NCBI GenBank assembly: GCA_049680295.1
Contig: JBAUHN010000355.1
Location: forward strand, 8,836-72,835
Reading direction: 5' to 3'
Source: Sulfitobacter sp.
GTDB lineage: Bacteria > Pseudomonadota > Alphaproteobacteria > Rhodobacterales > Rhodobacteraceae
DNA: 64,000 nucleotides
The position numbers and the translations under genes were made by a program. Below the pieces are notes generated by a model. The model saw only the letters and a program-made list of their open reading frames with translations, did not search any database and had not been told where the DNA came from. The first letter of the stretch is position 1. Every line of letters begins with the position of its first letter. This document shows, piece by piece, positions 39,491-63,164 of this stretch.

Positions 39491-39600
39491 TTTTCTTCGG
39501 CCCACTGGACGGCCAATAACGGCTTTGCGGGACAAAACGATCATTGACGCGTCTCAAATGAATGGCTGGTTTCGATGTAACGCGACTAAAAATGGAATAA

Positions 39601-40044: not shown

Positions 40045-40080
40045 TAAATCCTTTCAACAAGTATCATTTCATAGATGGCG

Positions 40081-41665: not shown

Positions 41666-41808
41666 AGAAAGACCCAGTCTGTTTTGTTGATAATTTCCGG
41701 CGCGTTGTTGCCGTTTTCAATCATGAGGTCGAGTGCAAAATACATGAAGGCCCGGAACAAAGCCGCAGGCGCCGGGCCAGTGCCTGCTTGCTTTACCCCA
41801 GCCAAACC

Positions 41809-43116: not shown

Positions 43117-43120
43117 AGCC

Positions 43121-44854: not shown

Positions 44855-45234
44855 AACCTGGGGTCTACCTGTGTTCGGGTCGTCAGTCTGATCGCCATAG
44901 GGCTCATTGGCCGACAAAGATACTATCTGCGCCCTAAAGGGAAACAATTCCACAAGGCATGAGCGGTTGTCCTCCAGCCAGAGGGGGCCATCTGAGCAGA
45001 GGACCGCCACTTCGCAGGGATTCGCCTCTCGGTTTAGGGCAAGAGGTTTGCGCATTCAACTTTCGATGGAAATTACCACAGTATCAAGGCCTGTCACTGC
45101 CTCAAAAGCACCGGAGGCTTTGTTGCACTGGTTTGCAAACACAGTTATAATCGGCGCATAATTTTCTTTTGTTAAAGAACCGCTTTCATCGCTGACAGCA
45201 GCGATACGGGCCTGTGAATTTAAGGGGTAAGATC

Positions 45235-46203
45235 ATGACAGTTATGGCAGTGATAAAACGGATTGGGTTTTGCCTGTCCATGGCGGTTCTGGCGGCCTGT
45301 CAGGCGGGGGCGGCCAGCGATCTTCCCAACGCAGCAGGCGCCACCAGCGCGGCCCCGACCACAGATATTGCCCCGACACTGGCGCGCAGCCCCGACGCGC
45401 GCCGCCTGAACCTGCGCGTCATCCAATCAGGTCACAGCCTGACCGATCCGATCCCCGAGATTCTGCGCGGCATGGTCAGCGCCCGTGGCATCCAGAACCC
45501 GGTCATCGACCGATCCACCATTCCCGGCAGCCCGATGAGCTGGCGTTGGGACAACGCACCCGGATACGGCGAACCTGACGCGCGCGCCGACATCGGCAAA
45601 TACGAAGTGCTGGTGCTGACCGAAGGGGTGTCGATGTCGTTGACCCTGCCGCATCACAAATCCGATGAACTGGCTTTGCGCTGGTTCAAAAACACATGGT
45701 CCAAAGGCAACAATGGCAAAGGCGCCGAAACCATCCTTTATGCGTCCTGGGTCCATATCACCAGCGGCCCGAACTGGGAAAACCCCTATAAAGACCCCGA
45801 AGGCAATATCCCGTTCCGCAAGCGGCTGCCGCTGGAGTTCGCGCGCTGGGAACATGTGGCCAAATACGTCAATGCCAACCGCCCCAAGGGATCGCCCGCG
45901 ATGCGCATCATCCCCGGTCCTTTGCTGATGGCCGCCCTTTATGACGCAATTCAGGCCGGTAGGGCACCGGGGCTGACCAACATCTCGGATGTGTTCGAGG
46001 ATGAAATCCACGTCAACGATAAGGGCGCCTATTTTATCGCACTGGCACATTATGCTGTGATTTACGGCCAGAACCCGCGTGGATTGCCCTATAATCTTGG
46101 ATTGGCGCGACCGCCCAGCCGTGACCTTGCCCTGTGGATGCAGGATCTGGTCTGGAAAGTTGTGACAGATTACAAAGGCGCGGGCGTGCGGGCCTCTGGA
46201 TAA
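45235..46203 (+). CDS. Lipoprotein, SGNH-like hydrolase candidate (paralog 1 of the pair bracketing the PKS/NRPS locus)
   Basis: Lipobox AVLAAC, GHSL block (IQSGHSLTD) and C-terminal DEIHVND (DxxH). About 35-40% identity by eye with 62232-63164 across all blocks. Confidence 0.7.
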   Translation: MTVMAVIKRIGFCLSMAVLAACQAGAASDLPNAAGATSAAPTTDIAPTLARSPDARRLNLRVIQSGHSLTDPIPEILRGMVSARGIQNPVIDRSTIPGSPMSWRWDNAPGYGEPDARADIGKYEVLVLTEGVSMSLTLPHHKSDELALRWFKNTWSKGNNGKGAETILYASWVHITSGPNWENPYKDPEGNIPFRKRLPLEFARWEHVAKYVNANRPKGSPAMRIIPGPLLMAALYDAIQAGRAPGLTNISDVFEDEIHVNDKGAYFIALAHYAVIYGQNPRGLPYNLGLARPPSRDLALWMQDLVWKVVTDYKGAGVRASG

Positions 46204-46439
46204 TATGGCCTGCCGTTTCCCAGGGCCTGCGGGCAATGGTGAAATATCGCACCCCCCGATGAGGCCATACACCACATAGTTGCAATTGCACCCTACACGT
46301 TGCGCCGATTGGCCTCCTTCGCGTATTCTGCCCTTAACAAATTTTTTTAAAAAAAGCGTCTAGAAGACAGATTACCGCCCCAAAGACACCCTAATTTTTG
46401 TATTAAGACAGACAGTATTAAAGAGGATGCCCGAACGTT

Positions 46440-49400
46440 ATGGACGGTTCTGATCAAGATATTCCGGTAAACGACAACGACATCGCTATCGTTGGTATGG
46501 CAGCGCATCTTCCGGGTGCGCGCACCATTGGCGATTACTGGGACAACCTGCGGGGTGGCGTCGAATCGATCCGCAAACTCACCCCCGAAGAACTGCGCGC
46601 CGCCGGTGAGCCTGAACATATTTCAGGCCGTCCCGATTATGTGCCCTATGCTGCCGTGCTTGAAGGCTTTGAAACATTTGACGCCGAATTCTTTGGTTTT
46701 TCCCCCAAAGAAGCCGCGATCATGGACCCGCAGCACCGCCAGTTTCTGGAGGTCGCCTGGGCCGCGCTGGAAAACGCGGGCCACCCGCCTGAAAACACCC
46801 CCGGACCGGTGGGCGTTTTTGCCGGCTGCGGCATGGGCAGCTATTTCTATTTCAACGTCTGTTCAAACCCGGATCTGGTCGACAATGTCGGCATGTTCCT
46901 GCTGCGCCACACCGGCAACGACAAGGATTTTCTGGCCACACGTCTTAGCCACACACTGGACCTCAAAGGCCCCAGCGTGAACATGCAGACCGCCTGTTCG
47001 ACATCACTGGTGACCACCCATTATGCCTGTCAGGCGCTGATGAACGGCGAATGTGACATGGCGCTGGCGGGGGGTGTGACGATCGAATTGCCCCACGCGC
47101 GCGGCTATCTTTACAAAGAAGGCGAAGTCCTGTCGCCGGATGGTCATTGTCATGCCTTTGATCACCGCGCCCAGGGCACGGTTTTTGGATCAGGGGCGGG
47201 CGTTGTTGTGCTGCGCCGTCTCGCGGACGCGATTGCCGATGGCGATCACATCTGGGCGGTGATCAAGGGCACGGCGATCAACAATGATGGCGCCGCCAAA
47301 GCCGGGTATCTGGCGCCTTCCGTCGATGGGCAAGCCGCCGCCATTGCCGAGGCGCATATGATGGCCGGCACCCCGGCCGACACCATTGATTACATCGAAT
47401 GTCACGGCACCGGCACCTATCTGGGCGACCCGATCGAGGTTGCGGCCCTGACACAAGCCTTTGCCGAGACCACGGACGATCAGGGTTTTTGCCGGATCGG
47501 GTCGGTCAAAACCAACATTGGCCACCTTGATACGGCGGCCGGTGTCGCCAGCCTGATCAAAACCAGCCTGTCGCTGCACCACAAGCAAATCCCGCCCTCG
47601 CTGGGCTATGAGGCCCCAAACCCGTCGATTGATTTCGATGGCAGCCCCTTTGTCGTCAATGACAAGCTGACCGACTGGGCGTCGCACAAAGGTCCGCGCC
47701 GGGCCGGGGTAAATTCACTGGGTGTGGGCGGAACCAATGCCCATGTTGTCCTGCAAGAAGCGCCGATGCGCGCCCCATCAGAAGATTCCGACTGGCCGTT
47801 TCAGATCTTGACCGTCTCGGGCCGCACCAAGGCCGCTTTGGACGGCAATGCCGCAGCCCTGGCCGCCCATCTGCGCGCAAACCCTGACCAATCGCTGGCC
47901 GATATCGCCTGGACCCTCAAAGAGGGCCGTCGCGCCTTTGAAAAACGCCGGGTGATTGTGGCCGCAGACCACGCAGAGGCGGCACAGCTGCTGGAAGAAA
48001 ACGATCCGCGCCGGGTGTTCACCCATACGCTGGTCGATGACGCCCCCGAATCCGTCTTTATGTTCCCCGGTGGCGGCGCCCAATACGCCGGCATGGCCCG
48101 CGATCTTTATGAGACCGAGCCGGTGTTCCAGGAATGGATGGACCGGGGTCTCGATATTCTGCAGCCCAAGCTCGATTACGACATCCGGGCGATCTGGCTG
48201 CCGGGTGCGGCAGATCACGCCAGCGCCGAGGAACGTCTGAAAACGCCATCCGTGCAATTGCCGTTGATCATGATCGTGGAATATGCGCTGGCGCAGCTTT
48301 GGATGTCCTGGGGTGTCAAACCCGACGTGCTTGTTGGCCATTCGATGGGCGAGAACACTGCCGCGTGTGTCGCCGGTGTGATGTCGTTTGAGGATTGCAT
48401 CGGTCTGGTGCATCTGCGCGGTCAGCTGTTTGATACCGTGGCCCCCGGGGGCATGCTCAGCGTGCCCTTGCCTGCTGCTGAACTGGAACCTTTGCTGGGC
48501 GACGATCTGGATCTGGGCGCGATCAACGCGCCGGACCTCAGCGTCGCCACAGGCCCGCAGGCCGCCTTGGACGTGCTGGAGGAGGTCCTGAAAGCCCGCG
48601 AGGTCGACTGCCAGCGGATCGGCATCAATATTGCCGCCCATTCGCGCATGTTAGAGCCTATTTTGGAGCGTTTCGGCGCCTATCTGCGTTCGATCACGTT
48701 AAACGCGCCGCAAATCCCTATTGTCTCAAACCGCAGCGGGCAGATGATGACGGATGCGCAGGCCATGGACCCTGACTATTGGGTCGGCCATTTGCGTCAC
48801 ACCGTGCGCTTTGCCGATTGCATCACCACGCTTGCGACAGACGCCACCCCCCGCATCTTTATTGAGGTCGGACCGGGCAAGGCGCTGTCGTCGCTGACCG
48901 GCATGCATGACAAGGTCAGCGCCAATCAGGTCATAGGCAGCCTGCGCCATCCCGATGACACCACAGCCGATGACGCCTATTTCATGGCGATGCTGGGCCG
49001 GGTCTGGGCGGTTGGCGGTGAATTCGACTGGGCGCAGATCTGGGGCGAGGCACGGCGCAACCGTGTGCCGCTGCCGGGATACGCCTTTCAGCGCGCGCCC
49101 TATTTCATTGAACCGGGCAGCAACCAGACCCAAAGTCAGGCCCAATGGCTGACCCGTACCGATGATGTGGGCGACTGGGGCTACCGCCCGGCCTGGGTGC
49201 CGCGCTATGCCGCCTGTGATCTGGATGTCACCCATGATCTGAAAGACGCCGAGACGCAGACATGGCTGGTCTTTGAAGACAACACCGGTCTGTGTACCGG
49301 CATCTCTGAGCGCCTGCGCGGTGCGGGCCAGCGTGTGGTCACCGTCACCCCCGGCGACGCCTTTGTGAAAACCGGCGACGACAGCTATGTGATTGCCCCT

Positions 49401-52400
49401 GAACGGGGGCGCGAAAACTATGATCAGCTGATCGGTGATCTGATCGCCCAAGATAAGGCACCCACCCGCATTCTGCACGGCTGGCTGGTCACCGGGGACG
49501 AAAGCTTCCGCCCCGGCAGCAGCTTTTTCCATCGCAATCAGGAACAGGGCTTCTACAGCCTGTTGTTCCTGGGCCAGGCCATCGGCGGCGAAGATCTGGC
49601 AATGCCTGTGCATATGACGGTTCTGACATCGGGGGCCATGCAGGTCAGCAACGAGGCGCTGCGCTATCCTGATAAATCCACCGTCATGGGACCTGCACGG
49701 GTGCTGCCGCAGGAATTTCCGGGGCTCACCACAACGGTGCTTGATCTGGATCTGCCGCTGGCTGCCAAAGGCCGGCGCAAGGGTCAGATCGCGCCGCAAA
49801 TGAACCGGCTGATTGATCAGACCCTCGAAGATCTGATTGCCGCACCGGCCAATATCACCGCCGCCCTGCGCGGTGAAAAACGTTATGAACTGTCGGTGCG
49901 CAAACTGGAGATACCAGAGCCTGACAAGGGTGATTTGCCCCTGCGCGACAAAGGTGTCTATATGATCACCGGCGGCTTTGGCGGCATTGGCCTGACCATC
50001 GCCCGCGATCTGATCACCACCCATTCGGCCCGCATTGTGCTGCTGTCACGCAGCGCCATGCCGCCGCGCGATCAATGGGATCAGGTGCTGCACCAGAACG
50101 CGCCGCAAGACCCTGTTGTGCGCCGCATCCGCGCCATTCAGGACCTCGAAAACCTGGGCGGCGAAGTGCTGTGCATCGCCGCCGACGTCAGCAACGTCGA
50201 AGACATGCGCGACGCGGTGACCCAGACCCGCGACGCCTTTGGCGACATCAACGGTGTGATCCATGCCGCAGGGCTGATTGCCGATGCCCCGATCATGGGT
50301 AAATCCACCATGGAGATCGAGGACGTGCTCACGCCCAAGGTCCATGGCACCCATGTGCTGGAAAGCATCTTTCCCGATGGCACGCTGGACTGGCTGGTGC
50401 TGTTCTCGTCAACGTCAACCGTGACCACGCCCGCAGGTCAGGTCGATTATGTCGCCGCCAACGAATATCTGAATGCCTATGCCAAATCGCGCAAGGGCGA
50501 CAAAACCCGGGTGCTGGCGATCAACTGGGGGGTCTGGTCCGAGGTCGGCATGGCCGCGGATGCGATGCTGGCACGGTCCGGCAGCGCCACGCCGCCGCCT
50601 TCTGATCCGGCCCATGTCCCGATGCTGGACGCCGCCACCTTTGGCCCGGCCCATAACCGGGTCTTTACCGCCACATATACCGCCAAGGACCGCTGGTTCC
50701 TGGATGAACACCGCACCAAAGCAGGCGACGCACTGTTGCCCGGCACCGGCTATCTGGAACTGGCCGCCGAAGCGCTGGAGGCGCAGGGCGAAACCAGCCC
50801 GTTTGAAATTCGCGATCTCTATTTCCTGCGCCCGCTGGCTGTGGGCGATGACGTGGCCCAAAACATCCGTCTGCGGCTGCCGCGCAGCGATGTCGGCTAT
50901 GATTTCTCGGTGCAAAGCAGCGATACGGACGCCTTTGAGATCAACGCCCAGGCCAGCCTGTCCCTGCTGCCGATGGAGACCCCCGAGGCGGTGGATATCG
51001 CGGCCCTGCGCGCGCGCTGCACAGTGGCGGCCACTGCGGATGCAGGTGCCGCCATCACCTCGCGGCAAGAAGAACATCTGAACTTTGGCCCGCGCTGGCG
51101 GGTGCTGATGTCGACCGCTTATGGCGACAACGAAGGTCTGGCCGATCTGAAACTGTCAGATGCCTATCAGGGCGATCTGGACGATGGCTATGTGCTGCAC
51201 CCCGGTCTGATGGATCTGGCCACCGGCTGGGCGATGGATCTGATCCGCGACTACCAGCCCACCAACCTGTGGGTACCGGTGTCTTATGGCTCTGTCAAAG
51301 TCTACCGCGATCTGCCGCGCGAGGTGGTCAGCTGGGTCCGCAATGCCGGTGACAACCACGCCGGCGGCCAGATGGCCAGCTTTGATGTCACCATCATGGC
51401 CCCCGATGGCACCGTCTGCGTCGAGATCAAAGGCTTCTCGATCCGGCGCATGGACAGCGTTGCCGATTTCGCCAAAACCGAAAACGCCGCCGTCGCACAG
51501 ATAGACGAGGACGCACCGCGCCCCTTGTCACCTGCCGAAGAACGGCTGCGGCACAATATCTCGCAGGGCATCAAACCGCATGAAGGCTCGGATGCGTTTT
51601 TCCGCGCGCTGGCCTCATCGGCGCCACAGGTCATCGTGTCTTCGCTGGATCTGGATTTGCTGACCGCGCAAGTCGCCGAAAGCTCGGCGGTGCCGGAAAG
51701 CTCCGAGCAGACCTTCCAGCGGCCGGAACTGGATTCCGAATACGCCGCCCCCGCCAATGACATCGAGGAAAAACTGGCCAGCATCTGGCAGGATTTGCTG
51801 GGTGTCGATCAGGTCGGCGTCGAAGACAGCTTTTTCGACCTCGGGGGCCATTCGCTGATCGCGGTGCGGCTGTTTGCGCAGGTGCGCAAGGCCTATAGTG
51901 TCGATTTTCCGATCTCGGTGCTGTTTGAAGCGCCAACCATCCGCAAATGCGCTGAAATGATCGCCGCACGCGGTGTGGCCACATCCTCGGATGCCGGTGA
52001 CAATGCCACCGCAGCGCCCGAAACCGCCACCCGCCGCTTTACCCATCTGGTGCCGATGCACGCAGGCGAGGCCGGACCGCAAACGCCGTTCTTTCTGGTT
52101 GCGGGCATGTTTGGCAACGTGCTGAACCTGCGCCATCTGGCGCATCTTCTGGGCGCGGACCGGCCATTCTACGGGTTGCAGGCGCGCGGGCTTTACGGCG
52201 ATGAGGCGCCCCATACCTCCCTGGTTGAGGCGGCCACCGATTACATCGCTGAAATCCGTGCCGTGCAGCCGCATGGGCCTTATATGGTTGGCGGATTTTC
52301 CGGCGGCGGCATCACCGCCTATGAGATCGCACAACAATTGACAGCCATGGGCGAAGAAGTATCGGTTCTGGTGATGCTCGACACACCGCTGCCGGTGGCA

Positions 52401-52913: not shown

Positions 52914-52915
52914 CG

Positions 52916-53929
52916 ATGTCTCACCCCACAGTTCTGACCATCATCCTGAACTATAAAACCGCCCCGATGACCCAGAAATCCATCGCCGCAGCGCGGGCCG
53001 CGATGGCCGGGTTATCCGGTGAAATCACCGTCGTTGATAACGCCTCACAGGACGGATCCTTCGAGACGCTGTCGGCGTATGTGGCAGGCCTTGGCCCCGA
53101 TCCGGACATCCCGGTCCGGGTCCTGGCATCGGGCCGCAATGGCGGCTTTGGGGCGGGCAATAACGTCGGCATCCGCGCCGGGCTGAAGGATGGATCGAAA
53201 CCCGATTACGTCTATGTGCTGAACTCTGACGCCTTCCCGGACAAAGACGCCATTCGTCTGCTGCTGGCGCATCTGCAAACCCACCCCGACGCGGGTTTTG
53301 CCGGCAGTTACATCCATGGCGAAGACGGCGACACCCATCTGACGACATTCCGGTTTCCCTCCGTGTTCAGCGAATTCGAAGGGGCGATCCAGTTTGGCCC
53401 GGTCAGCCGTCTGCTGGCCAAATATGCCGTGCCGGTCAAAACCCCGGACACGGTCACACCCGTCGACTGGCTGGCAGGCGCCAGCATCATGATGCGCCAA
53501 AGCGTGCTGGATGAAATTGGCATCTTTGACGAAGAATTCTTTCTCTATTTTGAGGAAACGGACCTGTGCCGCCGCGCCCATCTGGCCGGGCATCAGACCG
53601 TGTTTGTGCCGCAAAGCCGTGTGGCCCATATCGGGTCGGTGTCCACGGGCATGAAAACATGGGGGCGGGTGCCGGGCTACTGGTTTGCCTCGCGGCGCTA
53701 TTATTTCACCAAGAACCACGGCCGGCTTTATGCGGGTCTGGCCACGCTGGCGCATCTGGCGGGGGGCGGGCTGCACTGGCTGCGCTGTCTGGTGACGCGC
53801 CGCGCCAACAACACGCCGTCGCATTTCCTGCGCACCTTGGCCTGGCATGATCTGACCGCCCGGCGCCGCGAGAATCCAAAACCGCAACCTGCGCTGACAT
53901 CCACGCCCCATCCAACGACCGGAGAATAA
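52916..53929 (+). CDS. Glycosyltransferase family 2 (embedded between the PKS and NRPS genes)
   Basis: LTIILNYKTAPMT..VVDNASQDGS..LNSDA..FLYFEETDLCRR. Starts 2 nt after the PKS stop and ends 4 nt before the NRPS start. Confidence 0.85.
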   Translation: MSHPTVLTIILNYKTAPMTQKSIAAARAAMAGLSGEITVVDNASQDGSFETLSAYVAGLGPDPDIPVRVLASGRNGGFGAGNNVGIRAGLKDGSKPDYVYVLNSDAFPDKDAIRLLLAHLQTHPDAGFAGSYIHGEDGDTHLTTFRFPSVFSEFEGAIQFGPVSRLLAKYAVPVKTPDTVTPVDWLAGASIMMRQSVLDEIGIFDEEFFLYFEETDLCRRAHLAGHQTVFVPQSRVAHIGSVSTGMKTWGRVPGYWFASRRYYFTKNHGRLYAGLATLAHLAGGGLHWLRCLVTRRANNTPSHFLRTLAWHDLTARRRENPKPQPALTSTPHPTTGE

Positions 53930-53933
53930 CCCC

Positions 53934-56900
53934 ATGTCCGATTTCAATTCCATCGTCATCGGCAACGAATCCCTTGTGATTCAATGCGGTGACATGCTGT
54001 TGCAGGGCGGGCATAAGATCAGCGCCCTTGTCACCCGCAACCCGGACGTGCGCGCCTGGGGCGAAAAACAGGGTCTAAGCGTGCATAGGCCGGGGTCTGA
54101 TCTGGCGGATCGGCTGGGGGATACCCCCTGTGACTGGCTGTTTTCCATCGCCAACCTCGATATTATTCCGCAGGCCCTGCTGGACCGCGCCGCCAAAGGG
54201 GCGATCAACTTTCACGATGGGCCCCTGCCGCGTTATGCCGGTCTGAACGCACCGGCCTGGGCGCTGATCAACGGCGAGGCGCAGCACGGCATCACCTGGC
54301 ACCTGATCGAAGGCGGCATCGACGAAGGCGATATCATCGAGCAACGCAGCTTTGACATCGCCCCCCATGACACTGCCCTGACGATGAACACCAAATGCTA
54401 TGTCGCGGCGATCGAAAGTTTCGGCGCGGTGATATCGGCCGTGGCAGATGGTCTGCCCGGCCGCCGCGCTCAGGACCTGTCCCAGCGCAGCTATTTCGCC
54501 AAAGACGCCCGGCCCGCCGCTGCCGCACGGCTGGATTTCAATACATCCGCCAAAGATCTGGTGGCCTTGGTGCGGGGCCTTGATCATGGCGACTACTGGA
54601 ACCCGCTGTCTTGCCCCAAGATCGAAGCGAATGGCCAAATCTGGCTGATCGGCGCCGCCTCTGTCGCCGAAGACAGCCCCGATGCGGCCCCCGGTACGGT
54701 CCTTGCCAGCGACGGCGACACACTGACTGTTGCCACCGGTGCAGGCGCCATTGCGCTGACAAATATCAGACCCTGCACAGGCGATGCGGACCTGCCACAG
54801 GCAGGCGATGTCCTCTCCTCGCCCTCGGCAGCCGAGGCAACGGCCCTTGATGCCGTCCTGGCCAAAACCCTGCGCGCAGAACCCTATTGGCGCAAACGTC
54901 TTGAAACCCTGACCCCGGCGCAGGCCCCTTTGATGCAGGCCACGGATGCCAAGGGCGTCGAGACGCGCAAATTAAATCTGCCCGCGGCACTAGGCGCGGA
55001 TGATCAGGCCGCAGTGCTGGCCACATTGGTCCTGCGCCTTGGCGATGACAGCACCATTGATCTGGCCTGGCAGGACGCAGGAACCACCCATAACGCGCCA
55101 AAACCCTATGTCAGAGACTGGGTGCCGCTGCGGTTTGAGACAAAAGACAGCTTTGACGCCGCCAGCACCGCACTCGCCGATGAGATCGCAACCGCGCGCA
55201 GCAAGGGCGGTTTTGCCTGCGATCTGCCCGCGCGTATTCCGGGTCTGGATGCTGCGCAAATGCCGCAGGTCGGGGTGACATCCGGCCGTGAAATCATTTC
55301 CGGCACGGTTCTGACCCTTGCCACCGGTGACGCCCCCGCCCTGATCGCGGATGCCGCACAGATGCCCGCCGCCCTGCTGGATCTGATCGCAGCGCGTCTT
55401 GAAACCCTTGGCACAGCCCTTGCCATGCCTGACGCGCGCGGCCAGGCGCTTAGTGCCCTGCCGATCCTGCCGGATGCAGAACGCCAGCACATCCTGCAGG
55501 GCCTGAACGACACAAAAACCGCCTACCCGGCAGATGCCTGCATTCATCAGCTGTTTGAAGCCCAGGTCGCCCGCACGCCGGACGCCGAAGCACTGGTGTT
55601 TGAAGGCGAGGTGCTAAGCTATGCCGCGCTGGATGCGCGCGCCAATCAGGTGGCCCATGTGTTGCGCGATATGGGCGTCGGCCCCGGCAAAACCGTCGGG
55701 CTGCATTTGCGCCGCTCGACCGAATTGCTGGTGGGCGCCCTGGCGATCTTTAAGGCCGGGGGCGCTTATGTGCCGCTGGACCCAGGCTTCCCCTCTGATC
55801 GCATTGCCTACTACATCGAAGACAGCGCCGCACCGGTGATCATCACCCAGAGCGATCTGGCAGCGGGCCTGCCCGCGCATAGTGCCAAAGTGCTTGTGTT
55901 AGAGAGTGATCCGCGCATTGCCGCCGCCGCCACAGACACGCCCGACAGCGGTGTTTCCGCCTCTGATCTGGCCTATCTGATCTACACTTCCGGCTCGACC
56001 GGCAAGCCCAAGGGCGTCATGGTTGAACACCGCAATGTATCGAATTTCTTTACCGGCATGGACGCCCATATCAGCCATGACCCTGCGGGCGTCTGGCTGG
56101 CCGTGACCAGCCTGTCGTTTGATATCTCGGTGCTGGAACTGTTCTGGACCCTTGCGCGGGGTTTCAAACTGGTGCTTAGCAGCGATGAAGACCGCGGTCT
56201 GATCTCAAACGGGGGGCTGCAGGTATCCGACACGCCGATGGATTTCAGTCTCTATTACTGGGGGAATGACGATGCTGTCGGCACCGAGAAATACAAATTG
56301 CTGCTGGAAGGCGCGAAATTCGCCGATGACCACGGCTTTTGCGCTGTCTGGACGCCTGAACGGCATTTCCACGCCTTTGGCGGGCCTTATCCCAACCCGT
56401 CCGTGACCGGTGCGGCGGTGGCTGCCGTGACCAAAAATCTGTCGGTGCGCGCCGGTAGTATCGTCGCCCCCCTGCACCATCCTGCGCGCATTGCCGAAGA
56501 ATGGGCGGTGATTGACAATCTGACGGGGGGCCGTGTCGGGCTGGCCATGGCCTCGGGCTGGCAGCCCGATGATTTTGTGCTGCGCCCCGAAAACACGCCG
56601 CCACACAATAAAACCGCCCTGATAGAGACGATCAAGACCGTGCGCCGGCTTTGGGCGGGCGAAGCGGTTGAATTCCCCCGCCAGGATGGCGCGATGCACG
56701 CGGTTGTCACCCAGCCGCGCCCGATTTCGGACAAAATGCCGATGTGGGTCACCTCTGCCGGCAACCCCGCCACCTGGGTTGAGGCGGGCGAATTGGGCGC
56801 CAATGTTCTGACCCACCTTCTGGGCCAAAGCGTGGATGAGGTCGCCGAAAAGATCAAAATCTACCACAAGGCGCTGCGCAGCGCCGGGCATGATCCGGCC

Positions 56901-58562
56901 GACCACACCGTCACGCTGATGCTGCACACCTATATCGCCGACAGCCGCGATGCCGCGCGCGACGTCGCCCGCGAGCCGATGAAAAGCTATCTGCGCAGTG
57001 CCGCCGGGCTGATCAAACAATACGCCTGGGCCTTTCCCGCCTTTAAGCGCCCTGAGGGGGCCAAAAACGCCTTTGATCTTGATCTGGGCAGTCTGGAACC
57101 GGACGAGCTGGAAGGCATCCTCGATTTCGCCTTTGAGCGGTATTTCAACGATTCCGGCATGTTTGGGACTGTTTCGGACTGTGTGGAACGGGTCGAAGCG
57201 CTGAAAAAAATCGGCGTTGGCGAAGTCGCCTGCCTGATCGAATATGGCATCGCCACCGACACCGTTCTTGAGGGTCTGCGCCCGCTGGCCGAGGTGTTGC
57301 GCCAGTCCAATCAGGCCACTGAACTGGACGCGGATGATTTCTCCATCGCCGCCCAGATCATCCGCCACAAGGTCACGCATATGCAGTGCACCCCCTCAAT
57401 GGCGCAGATGATCACCATGAACGACGAGGCGCGCAGCGCTTTGGCGCGGGTGCCGCATGTGCTGGTTGGCGGCGAGGCACTGTCGGGTGCGCTGGCCCAG
57501 GAATTGCACCAGATCACCGGCAAGCCGGTCCAGAATATGTATGGTCCCACGGAAACCACGATCTGGTCCACAACCGAACGGACAACAGGCGGCGAGGGTG
57601 TGATCAACATCGGCAAACCCATCGCCAATACCCAGGTCTATGTGCTGGACGAGGACCGCCAGCCCGTGCCCATCGGCACCGCAGCCGAGCTTTATATCGG
57701 CGGCGATGGGGTGACGCGCGGCTATTGGCAGCGCCCTGATTTGACAGACGAAAGATTCGTCGCTGATCCCTTTATAGAGCCTGATATGGCCGCCCCCGGC
57801 GGCGCGCGCATGTACCGCACCGGCGATCTGGTGCGCTGGCGCAGCGATGGGCGGCTTGATTTTCTGGGCCGCATTGACCATCAGGTCAAACTGCGCGGCT
57901 ACCGGATTGAACTGGGCGAAATTGAAGCGGCAATTGACGGCTTTGCAGGCGTGCGCCAATCGGTGGTGATGCCCCGCGAAGACACCCCCGGCCTGACCCA
58001 GCTGGTGGCCTATGTGACCACCACCGCCCCGGTGGCCGAGGCAGCGTTGCGCAAACATATCGGCGCCGGACTGCCTGACTATATGGTACCCGCACGTGTT
58101 GTAACGCTGGACAGCTTTCCGCTGACCCCCAACAAAAAGATCGACCGCAAGGCGCTGCCGGCCCCCATGGCCGTGCAGGCTGCACCCCCCGCGACAGCCA
58201 GCGCCCCGGCCCCGGACGGATCATCGGCCCAGAGGATCGCCGACATCTGGTCACAGATATTGGGCGTCGCCAACATCGGTGCGCGCGATAACTTCTTTGA
58301 TCTGGGCGGGCATTCACTGCTGGCGGTACAGGCCCACCGTGAAATACGCACCACCCTGTCGGTGCCAAAGCTCAGCATCACGGACATTTTCCGCTTTCCA
58401 ACCCTGCAGGCCCTTGCCGCCCAGGTGGATGCGAAATCCGGCGTGTCTGAACCTGCGTCCAAACCCGATGACGCCCCCGCCGTGGCCGAACGGGCCGCAG
58501 CCCGCAGCGATGCCATGTCGCGCCGCAAGGAAATGAGGGCGAAACGTCACGCCCGCTCATGA
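53934..58562 (+). CDS. NRPS starter module: formyltransferase-like domain, C-domain C-lobe remnant, A domain (Gly code) interrupted by a luciferase-like monooxygenase, and T domain
   Basis: F: INFHDGPLPRYAG + GGIDEGDII. A: LSYAALDARAN (A1), LKAGGAYVPLD-type (A2), YLIYTSGSTGKPKG (A3), FDISVLE (A4), then a 360-aa LLM insert, then NMYGPTETT (A5), GELYIGG..GYW (A6), YRTGD (A7), GRIDHQVKLRGYRIELGEIE (A8), LPDYMVP (A9), NKKIDRK (A10). T: FFDLGGHSL. Confidence 0.92.
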   Translation: MSDFNSIVIGNESLVIQCGDMLLQGGHKISALVTRNPDVRAWGEKQGLSVHRPGSDLADRLGDTPCDWLFSIANLDIIPQALLDRAAKGAINFHDGPLPRYAGLNAPAWALINGEAQHGITWHLIEGGIDEGDIIEQRSFDIAPHDTALTMNTKCYVAAIESFGAVISAVADGLPGRRAQDLSQRSYFAKDARPAAAARLDFNTSAKDLVALVRGLDHGDYWNPLSCPKIEANGQIWLIGAASVAEDSPDAAPGTVLASDGDTLTVATGAGAIALTNIRPCTGDADLPQAGDVLSSPSAAEATALDAVLAKTLRAEPYWRKRLETLTPAQAPLMQATDAKGVETRKLNLPAALGADDQAAVLATLVLRLGDDSTIDLAWQDAGTTHNAPKPYVRDWVPLRFETKDSFDAASTALADEIATARSKGGFACDLPARIPGLDAAQMPQVGVTSGREIISGTVLTLATGDAPALIADAAQMPAALLDLIAARLETLGTALAMPDARGQALSALPILPDAERQHILQGLNDTKTAYPADACIHQLFEAQVARTPDAEALVFEGEVLSYAALDARANQVAHVLRDMGVGPGKTVGLHLRRSTELLVGALAIFKAGGAYVPLDPGFPSDRIAYYIEDSAAPVIITQSDLAAGLPAHSAKVLVLESDPRIAAAATDTPDSGVSASDLAYLIYTSGSTGKPKGVMVEHRNVSNFFTGMDAHISHDPAGVWLAVTSLSFDISVLELFWTLARGFKLVLSSDEDRGLISNGGLQVSDTPMDFSLYYWGNDDAVGTEKYKLLLEGAKFADDHGFCAVWTPERHFHAFGGPYPNPSVTGAAVAAVTKNLSVRAGSIVAPLHHPARIAEEWAVIDNLTGGRVGLAMASGWQPDDFVLRPENTPPHNKTALIETIKTVRRLWAGEAVEFPRQDGAMHAVVTQPRPISDKMPMWVTSAGNPATWVEAGELGANVLTHLLGQSVDEVAEKIKIYHKALRSAGHDPADHTVTLMLHTYIADSRDAARDVAREPMKSYLRSAAGLIKQYAWAFPAFKRPEGAKNAFDLDLGSLEPDELEGILDFAFERYFNDSGMFGTVSDCVERVEALKKIGVGEVACLIEYGIATDTVLEGLRPLAEVLRQSNQATELDADDFSIAAQIIRHKVTHMQCTPSMAQMITMNDEARSALARVPHVLVGGEALSGALAQELHQITGKPVQNMYGPTETTIWSTTERTTGGEGVINIGKPIANTQVYVLDEDRQPVPIGTAAELYIGGDGVTRGYWQRPDLTDERFVADPFIEPDMAAPGGARMYRTGDLVRWRSDGRLDFLGRIDHQVKLRGYRIELGEIEAAIDGFAGVRQSVVMPREDTPGLTQLVAYVTTTAPVAEAALRKHIGAGLPDYMVPARVVTLDSFPLTPNKKIDRKALPAPMAVQAAPPATASAPAPDGSSAQRIADIWSQILGVANIGARDNFFDLGGHSLLAVQAHREIRTTLSVPKLSITDIFRFPTLQALAAQVDAKSGVSEPASKPDDAPAVAERAAARSDAMSRRKEMRAKRHARS

Positions 58563-59254
58563 CCCCGGTTCCCGGGTTGGAAGCGGCCCTGCGCAGCCAG
58601 CTGGGCGGTCAGATCTCGGTGGCTTTGGCAGACCCCAAAGCCCCAACCGGCAGATTGTTCCCCGCTGAAGCGGCCGCCATGGCAGCGGCGACGCCAAAAC
58701 GCCTGTCGGAGTTTACCGCCGGACGCGGCGCGGCGCGGCGCGCGCTGGCCGCCATCGGCGTGGACCCTCAGCCCATCCTGCACGCCCCCGACCGTGCACC
58801 GATCTGGCCCGCGGGTGTGACCGGCAGCATCACCCATTGCGACATTTTATGTCTCTCTGCCGTGGCCAGGACCGACACCATCCGCAGCCTTGGCATTGAT
58901 CTGGAACCCGACGCAGACCTGCCCCGCGATCTGGAAGACATCGTCTGTACATCGGCCGAGCGGGGCTGGCTGGACAGCCACCCCGCAGACAGACGCGGGA
59001 CACTGGCCAAGCTGATCTTTTGCGCCAAGGAAAGTGCCTATAAGGCGCAATATCCCCTGACACAGAGCCTGTTTGGCTTTGAGACCTTTGAAATTACCCT
59101 TGATCCGGAGGCGGGGCAATTCACTGCAACCTTCCAAAACCCGGTCGGCGGGTTTGCAGCCGGTGACGTGCTACAGGGGCGGTTTCTGCGGCAACAGGGT
59201 CTGATTTTCACCAGCGTGGTGATCCCACACTCTGACAGCCCGGTGTTCGGCTGA
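58559..59254 (+). CDS. Sfp/EntD-type 4'-phosphopantetheinyl transferase
   Basis: WPAGVTGSITHC, SLGIDLEP and FCAKESAYKA motifs. ATGA overlap with the NRPS stop. Confidence 0.88.
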   Translation: MTPVPGLEAALRSQLGGQISVALADPKAPTGRLFPAEAAAMAAATPKRLSEFTAGRGAARRALAAIGVDPQPILHAPDRAPIWPAGVTGSITHCDILCLSAVARTDTIRSLGIDLEPDADLPRDLEDIVCTSAERGWLDSHPADRRGTLAKLIFCAKESAYKAQYPLTQSLFGFETFEITLDPEAGQFTATFQNPVGGFAAGDVLQGRFLRQQGLIFTSVVIPHSDSPVFG

Positions 59255-59366
59255 CGCAAACGACACAAACCTGCGGCTCAATCTGTTCCAGACGGCCATT
59301 TTAACTGTTTGTTAAGACCTTGAGACCCTGGTGTTGCGCACGAGGTTTCACAGGGTAAATGCAAAC

Positions 59367-60878
59367 ATGCGCGACATAAAAGCAGCGGTTTTTATCATGG
59401 CCTGTCTGTTCCATATTGCCCCTGTGGAACAGGCCCGCGCCCAGGAAGGCGCGCTGGATCTGGAACTCAGCACCACATACGAGCGGTGGACGTTACCCGG
59501 TAACGAAAAGATGGGCATGGCCAATGTCAGGCTGTCGGAATTTTCCGGGGAGTATTTCAATTATGGCATTGAATCCTACACCGCAGTGGCGGGGGAGCGT
59601 GGCGGCTTCATCACAATCGGTGCGCATGCTGGATTGCGCTTTCCCGTCAGCCAGAGACTGTCACTGGACAGTGGGCTTTCTGTGGGGGCCGGGGGCGGGC
59701 GTGGAGGGTATTTCCTAAGTGGCGGCGGCCTGATGCTGCGTGGGCACGCAGGTCTGAAATACGCGGCTCCCATCGGGCAGTTGGGTCTGGGTGTCAGCTA
59801 TGTAAGCTTTCCTGAAAATGGGGATATAGACAGTGCGCAAGCCTATATTTCCTATTCTCTGCCCTTCTCGGTGGCGGGCAGACCTGGCCTGAATTTCGGC
59901 ACCGCTGCGCAGGCTGGCAATGCAATTCCGCGCAGAAAAGATTCCAAAACACATCAGTTTTCACTGGTGACGCGGTCGGTGATGGCCAACAGACAGGTTC
60001 TGAAAGACGCCAGCGCAACGGTCTTTCAGGAAGATTTCAAAATGCTGGGGGTCAGGTGGCGGACGCATTTGACTGACACATGGATCGCCCAGTTTGAAAC
60101 AGTCGGAGGCGGCGGAGGCAACAGCGCGGGGTACATGCATCTTCTGGCCGGGTTGGGTGCGCGGCAATCCATCACCAGAAACCTGTCGGTCTATGAAACC
60201 CTGTCCATCGGGGGCGGTGGCGGCGGCGGCGTGCCCACGGGGGGCGGGTTTTTGGTAGATGCCGCCATCGGCGTTCAGTATCTGTTTCCCAATTCTGCCT
60301 TTATCGATGTGTCCGCGTCCAAATTTCTTGCGCCTTCAACAGCGTTTTCAAACACCACTTTAAATCTGAACTTTGGCTACCAGTTGGGCACAGCCAGACC
60401 CGCGGATACGGGCAGTGTGGACAGGCGCCTTGCCTATCCGGTCAGAATTCGGACCGTCCAGCAGAACTATAAAGGCACACATCCAAACTGGCGAAACCGG
60501 CCCGCGCAGCCCGTCGATAACCTTGGGTTTCAGATTGACTATTTTATGTCTCCCAACATGTTTCTCACCGGGCAGGCCATTGGCGCATGGGGCGGAGACG
60601 CCGGGGCCTATATGACGGGTCTGGTCGGCGCAGGTGTGCATAAAGATTTGATCGGCAACCTTTTTGTCGAAGCAGAGGGTCTTGTTGGTGTTGCAGGCGG
60701 CGGCGGTCTGACCGTCGGTAGCGGCGCCGTGGGACAAGTGAATTTGGGTCTTGGATATCAATTTACACCCCGTTTAAGTGCGATGGTCAGCACCGGAAAA
60801 ATCAAATCTTTTGACGGGGACTTTGAAGCAGATGTTCTGGGTGTCTCGCTCAACTACGATTTCACCCTGTTCTTTTAA
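59367..60878 (+). CDS. Predicted outer-membrane beta-barrel protein with three internal repeats and poly-Gly tracts
   Basis: Signal peptide ..APVEQARA/QEG, alternating-hydrophobic strands, terminal ..LNYDFTLFF (C-terminal Phe beta-signal), and Gly runs GAGGGRGG, GGGGG, GGGGGGG, AGGGG. Confidence 0.65.
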   Translation: MRDIKAAVFIMACLFHIAPVEQARAQEGALDLELSTTYERWTLPGNEKMGMANVRLSEFSGEYFNYGIESYTAVAGERGGFITIGAHAGLRFPVSQRLSLDSGLSVGAGGGRGGYFLSGGGLMLRGHAGLKYAAPIGQLGLGVSYVSFPENGDIDSAQAYISYSLPFSVAGRPGLNFGTAAQAGNAIPRRKDSKTHQFSLVTRSVMANRQVLKDASATVFQEDFKMLGVRWRTHLTDTWIAQFETVGGGGGNSAGYMHLLAGLGARQSITRNLSVYETLSIGGGGGGGVPTGGGFLVDAAIGVQYLFPNSAFIDVSASKFLAPSTAFSNTTLNLNFGYQLGTARPADTGSVDRRLAYPVRIRTVQQNYKGTHPNWRNRPAQPVDNLGFQIDYFMSPNMFLTGQAIGAWGGDAGAYMTGLVGAGVHKDLIGNLFVEAEGLVGVAGGGGLTVGSGAVGQVNLGLGYQFTPRLSAMVSTGKIKSFDGDFEADVLGVSLNYDFTLFF

Positions 60879-60935
60879 ATGTAAGAATTGGCGCGTCTGG
60901 GGTTCGCCCCTCCGAACAGCAGGCAAAACCAAAGG

Positions 60936-62117
60936 TCAGCCTTGCCTGAGTGTTGCGGCCAGATGATCCATGCGGCGCCCGAACTCTGTTTGGAAATCGC
61001 GCGCCTGCGCAAAGGCCACCGATGCCGTGCAGGCCGCGACGATCTGGTCGCGATCCGCATTCAGCGTGGCGATGGTGTCGGCCAAAGCCCCCACATCCCC
61101 CAGTGGCACCGCCCAGCCCGCCTGTGCCTGCGCCTGCACCGCAGACCACATCTGATTGGCATAGCCGACAATGGCCAGCCCGCAGCCCATGCTTTCCAGA
61201 TAGGTGCACGACGGGTCCGACTGGCGATGACAACTCAGAAAGATATCCGCGCAGGTCCGGCTAACCGGCACCAAGACGTCCTCGAAATCCACCGGATCAT
61301 GCAGAGTCACGTGATCGCCCAGATTTTTGCTGTTGATCTGATCTGCGATCTCGTCGCGCAGGCTGCCCGCGCCGTAGATATCCAGCTGAAAGTTGATGCC
61401 CTTCCCCTGCAGGCGCTGTGCAACCGGGATCAGGTCCTGCGCGCCTTTCATCGGTTCCAGCCGGCCTGAATGGATCAGCCGCAGCGGGGAACCTGATTGC
61501 AAATGCGCCGCGCGGCGCTGCATTTCATCATCCGTGACAAACAAATCCGGCTTCATCCGGTTGTCGAGATACATCATCGTATTGGCGTTTAGCCCTTTGT
61601 AGGCTCTGTATGCGGGGTAGCCATTGACCTGAACGCCCTGGGCGTGCCGAAAGGCGCGGCGGCGGCGGATTTCATGCCATGTGTTCCAGCCCATCGAATA
61701 GATCCGGCGCGCAAGGCTTTTGTCTTTGCTCAGCCATGCGATCTGCAATCGGGCCTGCAAGGTATATTCAATCGTATAGACAACCTTTGCCCCGACCTGC
61801 GCGCCAAGGGCTGCGATGTGCAGACCTTCATGGTCATCGGCGGCACAAAACACCACATCATAGCCTTGCAGCATGTCGCGGGTCACGGGCTGCCCCGGAT
61901 CCAGCACTGTCAGGCCAAATTCCAGATCCGCAGGGTTTTGCGTGGTCTGAAACGGGATATGGGTCGCCCCGCCGTGCAGAATGCAATCCACCTTGCCCTC
62001 CCACAGGGCGCAATGCTGGCGCATGCCCTCGACAAACTTGGCGTCCAGAATCAGGGCGTCCCCCGCAGGCATGACCGGAGCGGTGGCAATCATCAACAGG
62101 TGGGGCATTTTATTCAT
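60936..62117 (-). CDS. Glycosyltransferase family 4 (GT-B)
   Basis: RLIHSGRLEPMKG..DIYGAGSLRDEI..LSCHRQSDPSCTYLESMGCGLAIVGY GT1/GT4 C-terminal domain. Confidence 0.8.
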   Translation of the reverse strand: MNKMPHLLMIATAPVMPAGDALILDAKFVEGMRQHCALWEGKVDCILHGGATHIPFQTTQNPADLEFGLTVLDPGQPVTRDMLQGYDVVFCAADDHEGLHIAALGAQVGAKVVYTIEYTLQARLQIAWLSKDKSLARRIYSMGWNTWHEIRRRRAFRHAQGVQVNGYPAYRAYKGLNANTMMYLDNRMKPDLFVTDDEMQRRAAHLQSGSPLRLIHSGRLEPMKGAQDLIPVAQRLQGKGINFQLDIYGAGSLRDEIADQINSKNLGDHVTLHDPVDFEDVLVPVSRTCADIFLSCHRQSDPSCTYLESMGCGLAIVGYANQMWSAVQAQAQAGWAVPLGDVGALADTIATLNADRDQIVAACTASVAFAQARDFQTEFGRRMDHLAATLRQG

Positions 62118-62231
62118 CTTTGGTAATATTCAGTGTCGAGAGTAGAATTGAGTGCGCTATATTGAAACCTAATAACGTTTTTTATATGCCCTTGGGGCGT
62201 TTTTTTCAGACCGTTACAAAAGGACAAAACA

Positions 62232-63164
62232 TTGCTGAGACGTCTCAAACGCCATAGCCCCGCTTTTCTTTTATTGCTGCTTGCCGCCTGTGGCAGCCTG
62301 ACCCGCTGTAGCGGGCCCAAACCACTGGATCAGGCCGCGTTTGACGCGCTTTATGCGACCCCGCAGGCCGTTGGCGCTGGTCCGCAAAAAACCTACCACA
62401 TTGGCCATAGTCTGGTCGGGCGTGACATGCCGGCAATGCTGGCGCAATTGGCCGGAGACGGGCATGGCTATGACAGCCAGCTTGGCTGGGGCAGTCCGCT
62501 GAAAGCGCATTGGGACCCGGATGAGGAAATCAACGGCTTTGACGTTGAAAACAACCACCCGCGTTACCGCGACGCAATGGAGGCGGTGACATCGGGGGAG
62601 TACGACGCGCTGGTGCTGACCGAAATGGTCGAAATCCGCGACGCGATCAAATATTTCAACTCAGGCGATTACCTGCACCGCTGGGCGCAGGCCGGATGGG
62701 GGGCAAACCCCGAAATGCGGGTCTATTTATACGAAACCTGGCATCCGCTGGACGATCCCGAGGGCTGGCTGGAGCGCATAGACAGCGATCTGGCCCGCTA
62801 TTGGGAGGGCGACATCCTGCGCCGCGCGCTGGCCTATGATGACATGCCGCATCCGGTCTATGTGATCCCGGCCGGACAGGTGCTGGCCGCTTTTGTCCGC
62901 GCGATTGAGGCGACCCCCGTCGATGGCCTGTCTGCGCGGGCCGATCTTTTCAGCGATGACATCCACATCAACGATCTGGGGGCCTATCTGGTGGCGCTGA
63001 CGCATTATGCGGTGCTTTATCAGAAATCCCCCGTTGGGTTGCCTCATGCGCTCAACCGTGCCGACGGAACCCCGGCCACAGCCCCCGGTGAAGGCACCGC
63101 ACGATTGATGCAGGAAACGGTCTGGCGCGTGGTGCAGGCCTATCCGCCCGCAGGGCTGCCCTAG
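62232..63164 (+). CDS. Lipoprotein, SGNH-like hydrolase candidate (paralog 2)
   Basis: TTG start, lipobox LLLAAC, YHIGHSLVG, YDALVLTE, DDIHINDLGAYLVALTHYAVLY. Paralog of 45235-46203. Confidence 0.7.
   Translation: MLRRLKRHSPAFLLLLLAACGSLTRCSGPKPLDQAAFDALYATPQAVGAGPQKTYHIGHSLVGRDMPAMLAQLAGDGHGYDSQLGWGSPLKAHWDPDEEINGFDVENNHPRYRDAMEAVTSGEYDALVLTEMVEIRDAIKYFNSGDYLHRWAQAGWGANPEMRVYLYETWHPLDDPEGWLERIDSDLARYWEGDILRRALAYDDMPHPVYVIPAGQVLAAFVRAIEATPVDGLSARADLFSDDIHINDLGAYLVALTHYAVLYQKSPVGLPHALNRADGTPATAPGEGTARLMQETVWRVVQAYPPAGLP

Follow-up and report, generated by a model that had tools for sequence, protein, structure and literature searches.

The stretch of DNA analysed here, referred to below as the window, comprises 64,000 nucleotides from Sulfitobacter sp. 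(positions 8,836 to 72,835 of contig JBAUHN010000355.1, assembly GCA_049680295.1) and carries on its forward strand four adjoining genes for a single-module type I polyketide synthase (PKS), a GT2 glycosyltransferase, a nonribosomal peptide synthetase (NRPS) loading module and an Sfp-type 4'-phosphopantetheinyl transferase (PPTase; Table 1). The locus is the Sulfitobacter copy of the PKS-GT2-NRPS-PPTase hybrid cluster that is conserved in the Roseobacter group, and a protein with 100% identity to its GT2 occurs in a Sulfitobacter sp. metagenome-assembled genome (MAG). Read directly from the sequence, the stop codon of the PKS (TAA, 52911-52913) is followed by CG and then by the ATG of the GT2 gene at 52916, the GT2 stop codon (TAA, 53927-53929) lies four nucleotides before the ATG of the NRPS at 53934, and the stop of the NRPS and the start of the PPTase overlap as ATGA at 58559-58562. 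Both the open reading frame (ORF) map and this reading agree with the gene coordinates and the three junctions given in a preliminary description of the window, which had also regarded the four genes as one translational unit, and tight coupling is indeed retained in other genomes, where the median core intergenic gaps are -4, +1 and -4 nt.

Table 1. Genes and domains of the window discussed in the text (window coordinates).
Feature	Position	Strand	Basis	Place in the locus
Type I PKS, single module	46440..52913	+	Pfam, motifs, 57-72% identical collinear orthologues in 66 loci	core
PKS: ketosynthase (KS)	46476-47759	+	Pfam	
PKS: acyltransferase (AT)	48054-48950	+	Pfam	
PKS: psiKR/ketoreductase (KR)	49263-50543	+	Pfam	
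PKS: dehydratase (DH)	50619-51464	+	Pfam	
PKS: carrier	51768-51962	+	Pfam	
PKS: thioesterase (TE)	52092-52814	+	Pfam	
GT2 glycosyltransferase	52916..53929	+	Pfam/NCBIfam	core, between PKS and NRPS, coupled on both sides
NRPS loading module	53934..58562	+	Pfam/NCBIfam, PDB matches, conservation	core
NRPS: formyltransferase (F) domain, methionyl-tRNA formyltransferase (FMT)/ArnA-like, with C-terminal subdomain (PF00551+PF02911)	53934-54788	+	Pfam	
NRPS: truncated condensation (C) domain remnant	54789-55538	+	profile vs PDB, conservation	
NRPS: adenylation (A) domain, N-part	55539-56228	+	Pfam	
NRPS: luciferase-like flavin mononucleotide (FMN) monooxygenase	56229-57308	+	Bac_luciferase; TIGR04020, E 1e-141	inserted at a4/a5
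NRPS: A domain, C-part	57309-58163	+	Pfam	
NRPS: peptidyl carrier protein (PCP; PP-binding), then basic C-terminal tail	58206-58433	+	Pfam	
Sfp-type PPTase (4PPT_N+ACPS)	58559..59254	+	Pfam/NCBIfam	core
Lipo2, lipoprotein with predicted SGNH/GDSL fold	62232..63164	+	alignment, model, Foldseek	recurrent fifth gene
Lipo1, Lipo2 paralogue, keeps GHS and DxxH	45214..46203	+	alignment	236-nt AT-rich gap to PKS
Outer-membrane (OM) beta-barrel, 515 aa, unnamed family	59331..60878 (NCBI start 59367)	+	model, homologues	insertion
GT4 (Glycos_transf_1)	60936..62117	-	Pfam	convergent, lineage-restricted accessory
PrtD-family type I secretion ATP-binding cassette (ABC) protein	43121-45055	-	TIGR01842, 2e-189	divergent neighbour, not part of cluster
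HlyD adaptor	41809-43116	-	TIGR01843, 1.5e-105	divergent neighbour, not part of cluster
Wzy_C-like membrane protein	20091-21635	+	Pfam	
GT4	21622-22746	-	Pfam	
CHASE histidine kinase	22825-24624	+	Pfam	
OafA-like AT3+SGNH acyltransferase	26772-28775	+	Pfam	
FAD_binding_4 + SDR pair, DprE1/DprE2-like	29811-31900	-	Pfam	
GT2	32152-33165	+	Pfam	
Sulfotransferase	33152-33997	+	Pfam	
GT2	33994-34974	+	Pfam	

Related loci were collected as relatives of the window GT2 in an alignment-driven scan with one genome per species, which gave at least 550 loci, and the best 80 of these were kept with flanks of 10 kb each. Ten window proteins were run against the 80 loci by tblastn and all flank ORFs were clustered; the closest long relative of the window, L084, whose GT2 is 81% identical, was considered besides the 80. 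Domains were called with Pfam and NCBIfam, folds were taken from AlphaFold models compared with the PDB by Foldseek, and the relationships of the NRPS were followed in a neighbour-joining tree. In these 80 Rhodobacterales loci the PKS, GT2, NRPS and PPTase genes are collinear almost everywhere, at identities of 57-72% (PKS), 55-69% (GT2), 53-63% (NRPS) and 36-50% (PPTase), the PPTase lying 3' of the NRPS in 60 of the 80, and it is only these four genes that are collinear and tightly coupled. The GT2, which has 3862 homologues at E<=1e-20, keeps its 55-69% identity across genera. Variants of the arrangement occur. Four Tabrizicola-type loci (L057, L060, L061 and L076) have PKS, NRPS, PPTase and Lipo2 on the same strand, and PKS and NRPS are not separated by a GT2; in these rearranged loci the GT2 has moved and is convergent, yet it still lies beside the other four genes. 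On a 20945-bp Amylibacter MAG contig (L030) the order GT2b-Wzx-PKS-GT2 is present and neither NRPS nor PPTase was detected within 10 kb downstream; this copy may have decayed or been split. Two loci with MAG labels from outside the order, Hydrogenophaga sp. (L075) and Betaproteobacteria (L080, which additionally carries GT4 and Lipo2), hold the complete core; their NRPS proteins nest within Rhodobacterales beside Paracoccus in the tree, so that either horizontal transfer or mis-binned contigs would account for them.

The hybrid cluster goes back to a description by Martens et al. (2007, Microb Ecol 54:31), which later papers restate with the product uncharacterised (PMC4337385; PMC5014874), and PMC4337385 reports it for 28 of the 57 Roseobacter-lineage genomes sequenced earlier. 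A conserved Roseobacter cluster of this kind without a product had been mentioned in the preliminary description, and these papers confirm it. One of our loci (L001) comes from Ruegeria sp. ANG-S4, and because this genome is among those of PMC4337385 the orthology with the published cluster is direct: PKS, GT2, NRPS and PPTase follow in the same order with identities of 72%, 65%, 63% and 43%, and orthology and collinearity extend likewise to about 65 further loci. Subsequent genome papers found the cluster to be unlike MIBiG entries or any known cluster (PMC10584327, 2023; PMC11225332, 2024), its antiSMASH-based classification being NRPS-like/T1PKS with 'low similarity' to MIBiG (PMC10584327). 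No product or mutant phenotype was found in the searchable literature since 2007, and a 2026 paper on Roseobacter phage resistance makes no mention of the cluster. Compared with the Martens-type cluster, the window has the same four genes, directly orthologous to those of Ruegeria sp. ANG-S4 and of many genera, and differs by an OM barrel that is lineage-specific, a GT4, a second paralogue of the SGNH lipoprotein and adjoining type I secretion genes. The locus is one more copy of an orphan cluster already known and not a new seven-gene system, and what goes beyond the earlier papers (PMC4337385; PMC5014874) is the domain-level prediction, the C-domain remnant, the SGNH partner and the embedding among Wzx/Wzz genes.

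The PKS follows the order KS-AT-psiKR/KR-DH-carrier-TE and has, by Pfam, neither an enoylreductase (ER) nor a loading domain. Its catalytic motifs are TACST, HGTGT and NIGH in the KS, GHSMG and the Arg in the AT, GGFGGIG, the Ser and YVAAN in the KR, the His and HPGLMD in the DH, and GGFSGGG, MLDTP and GDHD in the TE, and the carriers of PKS and NRPS both show GGHSL. As the preliminary description had it, the catalytic motifs of the PKS and of the NRPS, including the F and TE domains, are intact, and they are at least 95% conserved in the 65 PKS and 69 NRPS orthologues in which conservation was measured. The carrier sequence of the PKS (window 51830-51870) is FFDLGGHSL, which is PCP-like and not of the GxDSL type of acyl carrier proteins, and the specificity motif of the AT (window 48600-48650) is IAAHS, neither HAFH nor YASH; both are conserved in the orthologues.

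The NRPS begins with the F domain, in which the triad N92, H94 and D130 is invariant in the 69 orthologues, and ends after its PCP without a TE of its own (Pfam). Against the PDB the F domain matches FMT (1fmt, 1e-21), ArnA (6e-16) and LgrA (2e-6), and Met-tRNA FMT, ArnA and sugar N-formyltransferases (E 1e-21 to 1e-13) all score ahead of LgrA. The segment that follows, residues 286-535, is the least conserved part of the protein (31% versus 58-74% elsewhere), and its profile aligns only with the final ~85 residues of C domains and the C-A linker (McyB, 2.4e-14; Txo1, 1.1e-13); it was considered as a novel domain and rejected as such on this match. The HHxxxDG motif was not found in these residues, so the preliminary description was right that a functional C domain is lacking, only the truncated remnant being present. 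The AMP-binding domain is split at profile position 242, between FDISVLE and NMYGPTETTIW, by a monooxygenase of 360 aa that is the best-conserved segment of the NRPS (74%) and whose closest solved structure is the PuwE domain of the puwainaphycin synthetase (6ket, E 2.7e-101); the preliminary description makes no reference to it. The specificity residues D235, I236, L239, Q278, L299, G301, M322, I330 and W331 (GrsA numbering) together with the A10 Lys give the code DILQLGMIWK, all positions of which are invariant in the 69 orthologues, and from this code we infer that the A domain activates glycine.

The cluster borrows from glycine-hydroxylating modules, formylating loaders and the PKSs of capsule loci and is a member of none of these groups. 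Monooxygenase domains of the kind found here hydroxylate the alpha-carbon of PCP-bound N-acyl-glycine (PMC10204066). In MtaG and MelG of the myxothiazol and melithiazol systems, the Gly A domain is interrupted at a4-a5, as in the window, and the resulting carbinolamide cleaves to an amide and a glyoxylyl thioester, whereas in SolF (solanimycin), with the insertion at a8-a9, the hydroxyglycine is retained (PMC10204066). Unlike MtaG and MelG, the window module has neither a functional C domain nor its own TE, has an F domain at its N-terminus and initiates the line rather than ending it, and the N-acyl group would here be formyl. With LgrA of linear gramicidin it shares an N-terminal formyltransferase with the Asn/His/Asp triad, fused to A-PCP with no functional upstream C domain, but the F domain of the window is FMT/ArnA-like with weak similarity to LgrA (2e-6), and the C remnant and the monooxygenase are additional. 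Formyl-glycine F-A-PCP loaders followed by a PKS as the next enzyme also open the oxazolomycin/conglobatin-type oxazole polyketides. Oxazole formation from such starters goes with a CongE/OzmP-type ATP-dependent cyclodehydratase encoded in the cluster (PMC4504003), no example of which was found among the genes at 45.2-63.2 kb or the recurrent flank families of the 80 loci, and in contrast to the oxazole systems the KR and DH of the present PKS would remove the keto group that an oxazole needs.

The genes that recur around the core in other genomes belong, by Pfam, to GT4, a second GT2, a Polysacc_synt_3 flippase, Wzz, a P-loop kinase-like protein and an NAD epimerase, with the flippase gene ending ~143 nt 5' of the PKS and the Wzz gene starting ~153 nt 3' of the PPTase. 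Counts of these neighbours were restricted to the 58 of the 80 loci with complete flanks, and in 41 of the 58 at least two of GT4, GT2, Wzx flippase, Wzz, P-loop kinase-like protein and epimerase stand beside the core. An identical array, GT4(-) GT2b Wzx PKS GT2 NRPS PPT Wzz BYK(-) Epim(-), is found in 18 loci and most of it in about 30. Whether the polysaccharide context is limited to one clade was checked on the tree, in which the array-bearing loci fall on several marine branches; they represent at least 15 genera and alternate with clades of the Lipo2 type. The linkage to polysaccharide genes is old and persistent and not universal, and vertical inheritance accounts for part of it. In the window itself glycan genes lie 10-25 kb upstream of the core (20091-34974; Table 1), and their families suggest a sulfated, O-acylated surface polysaccharide. 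A precedent for this type of locus is provided by WcbR and RkpA, type I PKSs in the capsule (wcb/rkp) loci of Burkholderia and Sinorhizobium, the product of which is presumed to become attached to the glycan or its carrier (PMC3908369). There a single-module type I PKS lies among genes for the synthesis and export of a surface polysaccharide; surface-polysaccharide genes adjoin the PKS in the 41 of 58 loci, and do not in the window or in the 10 of 58 that have no such neighbours. The wcb/rkp loci are of the Kps/ABC type and lack the NRPS partner, the embedded GT2 and the PPTase, whereas the loci described here are of the Wzx/Wzz type, and the recurrent flank families of the 80 loci showed no Kps genes.

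A fifth gene that recurs with the core encodes the lipoprotein Lipo2. It is one of three proteins at the locus for which neither Pfam nor NCBIfam gives a family match, none of its 2473 homologues is named, and a sequence search against the PDB returned no match; information came from the search by structure alone. The AlphaFold model (pLDDT 87.6, pTM 0.86), which conforms to the three-layer alpha/beta/alpha SGNH fold, has as its top PDB matches in Foldseek 4i8i (DUF4886), 2hsj, 4q9a, 6se1 and 6vjp, with probabilities of 0.99-1.0 but modest TM-scores of only 0.31-0.53, and the structural matches comprise GDSL-like lipases, carbohydrate esterases and the periplasmic SGNH domains of the O-acetyltransferases OafA (lipopolysaccharide, LPS) and OatA (peptidoglycan). 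The residues G58-H59-S60-L61, with the block I nucleophile Ser, and D242-x-x-H245 of block V are invariant in 24 sequences, including both paralogues of the window, as are G87 and T130-E131, which from the alignment columns alone are candidate block II and III oxyanion residues. The fold and the catalytic motifs of Lipo2 are therefore supported, and the protein is predicted to be esterase- or acyltransferase-like. It resembles the SGNH domains of OafA and OatA and carbohydrate esterases in fold, in Ser and Asp-His motifs, in extracytoplasmic location and in a neighbourhood of glycan genes, and differs from OafA and OatA in that Lipo1 and Lipo2 are stand-alone lipoproteins, without a fused AT3 membrane domain, and that block I is GHSL and not GDSL. 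An orthologue of Lipo2 (51-65% identity) lies 3' of the PPTase in 21 of the 80 loci, two of which (L047 and L062) have it between PPTase and Wzz. The upstream lipoprotein, Lipo1, is a true paralogue of Lipo2 (33% identity, E 1e-29, both with an L-A-A-C lipobox), but tblastn did not find it upstream of the PKS in the 80 loci, although it is present in L084. The paralogy of the two lipoproteins that bracket the unit, pointed out in the preliminary description, thus stands, and the bracketing is a local accident, only the Lipo2 family being recurrently linked to the core. A lipid-anchored, periplasmic esterase- or acyltransferase-like protein would be suited to adding an acyl substituent to a glycan that is being exported, or to trimming such a substituent.

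Based on the domain content of the two synthases and on the comparative context, we now put forward a hypothetical mechanism in which PKS and NRPS form a two-protein, one-extension assembly line whose glycine-derived acyl unit ends on a sugar or a surface polysaccharide and not as a free antibiotic, and to which we assign a probability of roughly 0.55. The NRPS would act as the loader and the PKS as the single extender and terminator, the NRPS being placed first because, with no working C domain, it could not take over a chain, and because in the PKS the first domain is a KS and the last a TE. We propose that the A domain activates glycine, that the F domain N-formylates Gly-S-PCP, thereby supplying the N-acyl group that a C domain supplies elsewhere, and that the embedded monooxygenase hydroxylates the glycine alpha-carbon, as would be expected from its closeness to PuwE and its insertion at the a4-a5 site of MtaG and MelG. 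Since the F domain would provide the N-acyl group, the starter is expected to be N-formyl-alpha-hydroxyglycyl-S-PCP or, if formamide is lost, glyoxylyl-S-PCP. The KS would accept this starter, and one malonyl-type extension followed by the KR and DH reactions would give a C4 alpha,beta-unsaturated acyl-S-carrier, which the TE would off-load by release or transfer so that the acyl unit can be installed on a sugar or a surface polysaccharide. This destination is suggested by the GT2 inside the operon, by the position of the core between GT2-Wzx and Wzz in most marine lineages and by the SGNH protein encoded by the commonest fifth gene. In a more far-reaching form, which we offer tentatively, the module would not be a secondary-metabolite cluster at all but would produce a formamido-, hydroxy- or oxo-butenoyl decoration of a Wzx/Wzy-dependent surface polysaccharide or of its lipid-linked precursor; formylation may then serve as the handle for alpha-oxidation by the monooxygenase, and the periplasmic SGNH lipoprotein may transfer or trim the unit.

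Several points weigh against this mechanism. In 10 of the 58 fully flanked loci, among them all the freshwater/Rhodobacter-like clades, the flank families and the SGNH gene are both missing within 10 kb, the core of the window itself has no adjoining Wzx or Wzz families, and the linkage could largely reflect one ancestral arrangement that was vertically inherited. The GT2 profile gives marginal matches only in the PDB, with no close solved structure, so that its acceptor cannot be inferred; the IAAHS motif of the AT gives no prediction of the extender; the PKS could act iteratively; and the substrate of the F domain is not certain, as it is closer to sugar and tRNA formyltransferases than to the sole NRPS F domain of solved structure. 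The product has not been isolated to date. Scans of 45-63.6 kb for promoters (10 found versus 6.1±2.3 in shuffled sequences) and terminators (22 versus 17.9±4.5) did not rise above the shuffles and are uninformative on operon structure.

These same gaps in the polysaccharide context lend some weight to an ordinary cluster for a small, diffusible, glycosylated metabolite (a signal, toxin or antibiotic), with the polysaccharide genes as mere neighbours, the TE hydrolysing a C4 formamido- or oxo-enoate, the GT2 glycosylating it and unlinked transporters exporting it. Loader, extender, TE, glycosyltransferase and PPTase would make a self-sufficient line for such a compound, and the antiSMASH-based class quoted above (PMC10584327) agrees with it. 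On the other hand, across the 80 loci the core is not accompanied by any co-conserved gene for a transporter, a regulator or resistance, the GT2b-Wzx-PKS-GT2-NRPS-PPT-Wzz array is kept on one strand in its many genera, the recurrent fifth gene encodes a periplasmic SGNH lipoprotein of a fold used in glycan O-acyl chemistry, and the literature since 2007 offers no product. We regard the small metabolite as possible but doubtful. Much less probable is a second alternative, in which the F domain and the GT2 act on sugar nucleotides, the formyl group never becomes part of the polyketide starter, and an ArnA/WlaRD-like N-formylated amino sugar is acylated by the PKS/NRPS product. The PDB scores of the F domain, which rank above LgrA the enzymes that formylate Met-tRNA and sugars, the retention of the FMT-type C-terminal subdomain and the polysaccharide context would all suit it, but the domain is fused in cis upstream of A-PCP, as in the formylating loader LgrA, and a Gly A domain with a monooxygenase that hydroxylates N-acyl-glycine needs an N-acyl group that no C domain supplies (PMC10204066).

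The other genes around the core, several of which had been taken as cues to a cell-surface product, are of a different standing from the assembly line and from Lipo2. The 515-aa protein encoded 3' of the PPTase is an OM beta-barrel, as first described, its model consisting of a signal helix and ~24 beta strands (pLDDT 82.4) with PDB fold matches that are all OM beta-barrels; the protein ends in FTLFF, with a C-terminal aromatic residue, and a sequence search against the PDB found no match. Because no homologue was found by tblastn in the 80 loci and none is present in L084, the OM barrel is a recent insertion and not a component of the conserved system. Its GC3 is 0.61 compared with 0.70-0.74 for its neighbours, and beyond two close relatives its nearest homologues are from Chlorobiaceae and from Beta- and Gammaproteobacteria (40-48% identity). 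The family, 570 homologues in a patchy distribution over Sulfitobacter relatives, Chlorobiaceae and Beta-/Gammaproteobacteria, has a repeated Gly-rich GGGRGG motif and, apart from a weak PF13505 match in some members, no Pfam family; in Chlorobium ferrooxidans the homologue stands in an unrelated context with no link to PKS or glycosyltransferase genes. The order in L084 is T1SS (the type I secretion genes), Lipo1, PKS, GT2, NRPS, PPT, GT4 and Lipo2, with the GT4 directly 3' of the PPTase and the OM barrel missing. The convergent GT4 gene of the window was correctly assigned from the start, and among the 80 loci full-length homologues of its product (34%) occur only in L013, L075 and L080.

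The pair of ABC and membrane fusion protein (MFP) genes next to Lipo1, first taken for a glycoconjugate exporter, matches the PrtD/HlyD proteins of type I protein secretion and not DevBCA-like exporters, and is found in one of the 80 loci, there on the opposite side. The synteny across the 80 loci also does not bear out the seven-gene block as one system: OM barrel, Lipo1 and type I secretion genes, tried as components by tblastn, were rejected as not co-conserved and are local neighbours. The idea of a cell-surface glycoconjugate is supported by the comparative context (41 of 58 loci), but the cues cited for it, the OM barrel, the bracketing lipoproteins and the ABC/MFP pair, fail. The heterocyst glycolipid pathway (hgl PKSs, HglT, DevBCA-TolC), to which the locus had been compared, also directs a PKS, a glycosyltransferase and a PPTase toward an envelope product, but the analogy breaks down over the single module, the absence of an ER and of a multi-enzyme iterative lipid synthase, the amino-acid starter and the lack of a co-conserved DevBCA-type exporter. 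An envelope glycolipid of heterocyst or mycobacterial style, made by an iterative PKS, glycosylated by the glycosyltransferases and exported through ABC/MFP/TolC and the OM barrel, is therefore the least probable of the alternatives: two glycosyltransferases and a PPTase do lie with the PKS close to ABC, MFP and TolC-like genes, and KR-DH without an ER could yield a polyene if the PKS were iterative, but the exporter serves protein secretion, the OM barrel is newly inserted, the window GT4 is lineage-restricted, and fatty-acyl loading is lacking, the starter module being a glycine-loading F-A-PCP.

Further features of the window lie upstream. The genes at 36528-45055 (-) form a complete-looking type I secretion set, a TolC-like OEP (36528-37913) joining the HlyD and PrtD-type ABC proteins, and between them lie an ORF for 484 aa without a Pfam match (37947-39401, -), an overlapping 369-aa ORF on the + strand and a gene for an AHSA1/SRPBCC protein (40081-40608); no obvious RTX-type substrate was identified. 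At 1984-5181 (-), at the left end of the window, there are genes for a methyltransferase, a polysaccharide deacetylase and a GT4. At 10717-16638 (+) an ordinary operon of aromatic-acid catabolism starts with a TRAP transporter (DctM/DctP) and continues with genes for an extradiol dioxygenase, an FAD monooxygenase and a protein of the FAA-hydrolase family.

Roseobacters are dominant marine surface colonisers and algal partners, and a relative of the cluster GT2 is present in at least 550 species-level genomes. The domain reading, the C remnant, the SGNH partner and the Wzx/Wzz context make a question that dates from 2007 more directly testable, and the eye-catching features of the window, the OM barrel, the bracketing lipoproteins and the ABC/MFP genes, can be set aside as local accidents. 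The search for the product is now directed at the polysaccharide or LPS fraction rather than at culture extracts, and its targets are a C4 unit built from glycine and malonate, a carrier whose mass is shifted by a formyl or hydroxyl group, and released formamide or glyoxylate, with the unannotated SGNH lipoprotein family and its 2473 homologues as the likely partner. If the more far-reaching form of the mechanism is true, these abundant marine bacteria would decorate glycans with a non-carbohydrate unit made on an assembly line, and such a decoration would be of a new class.

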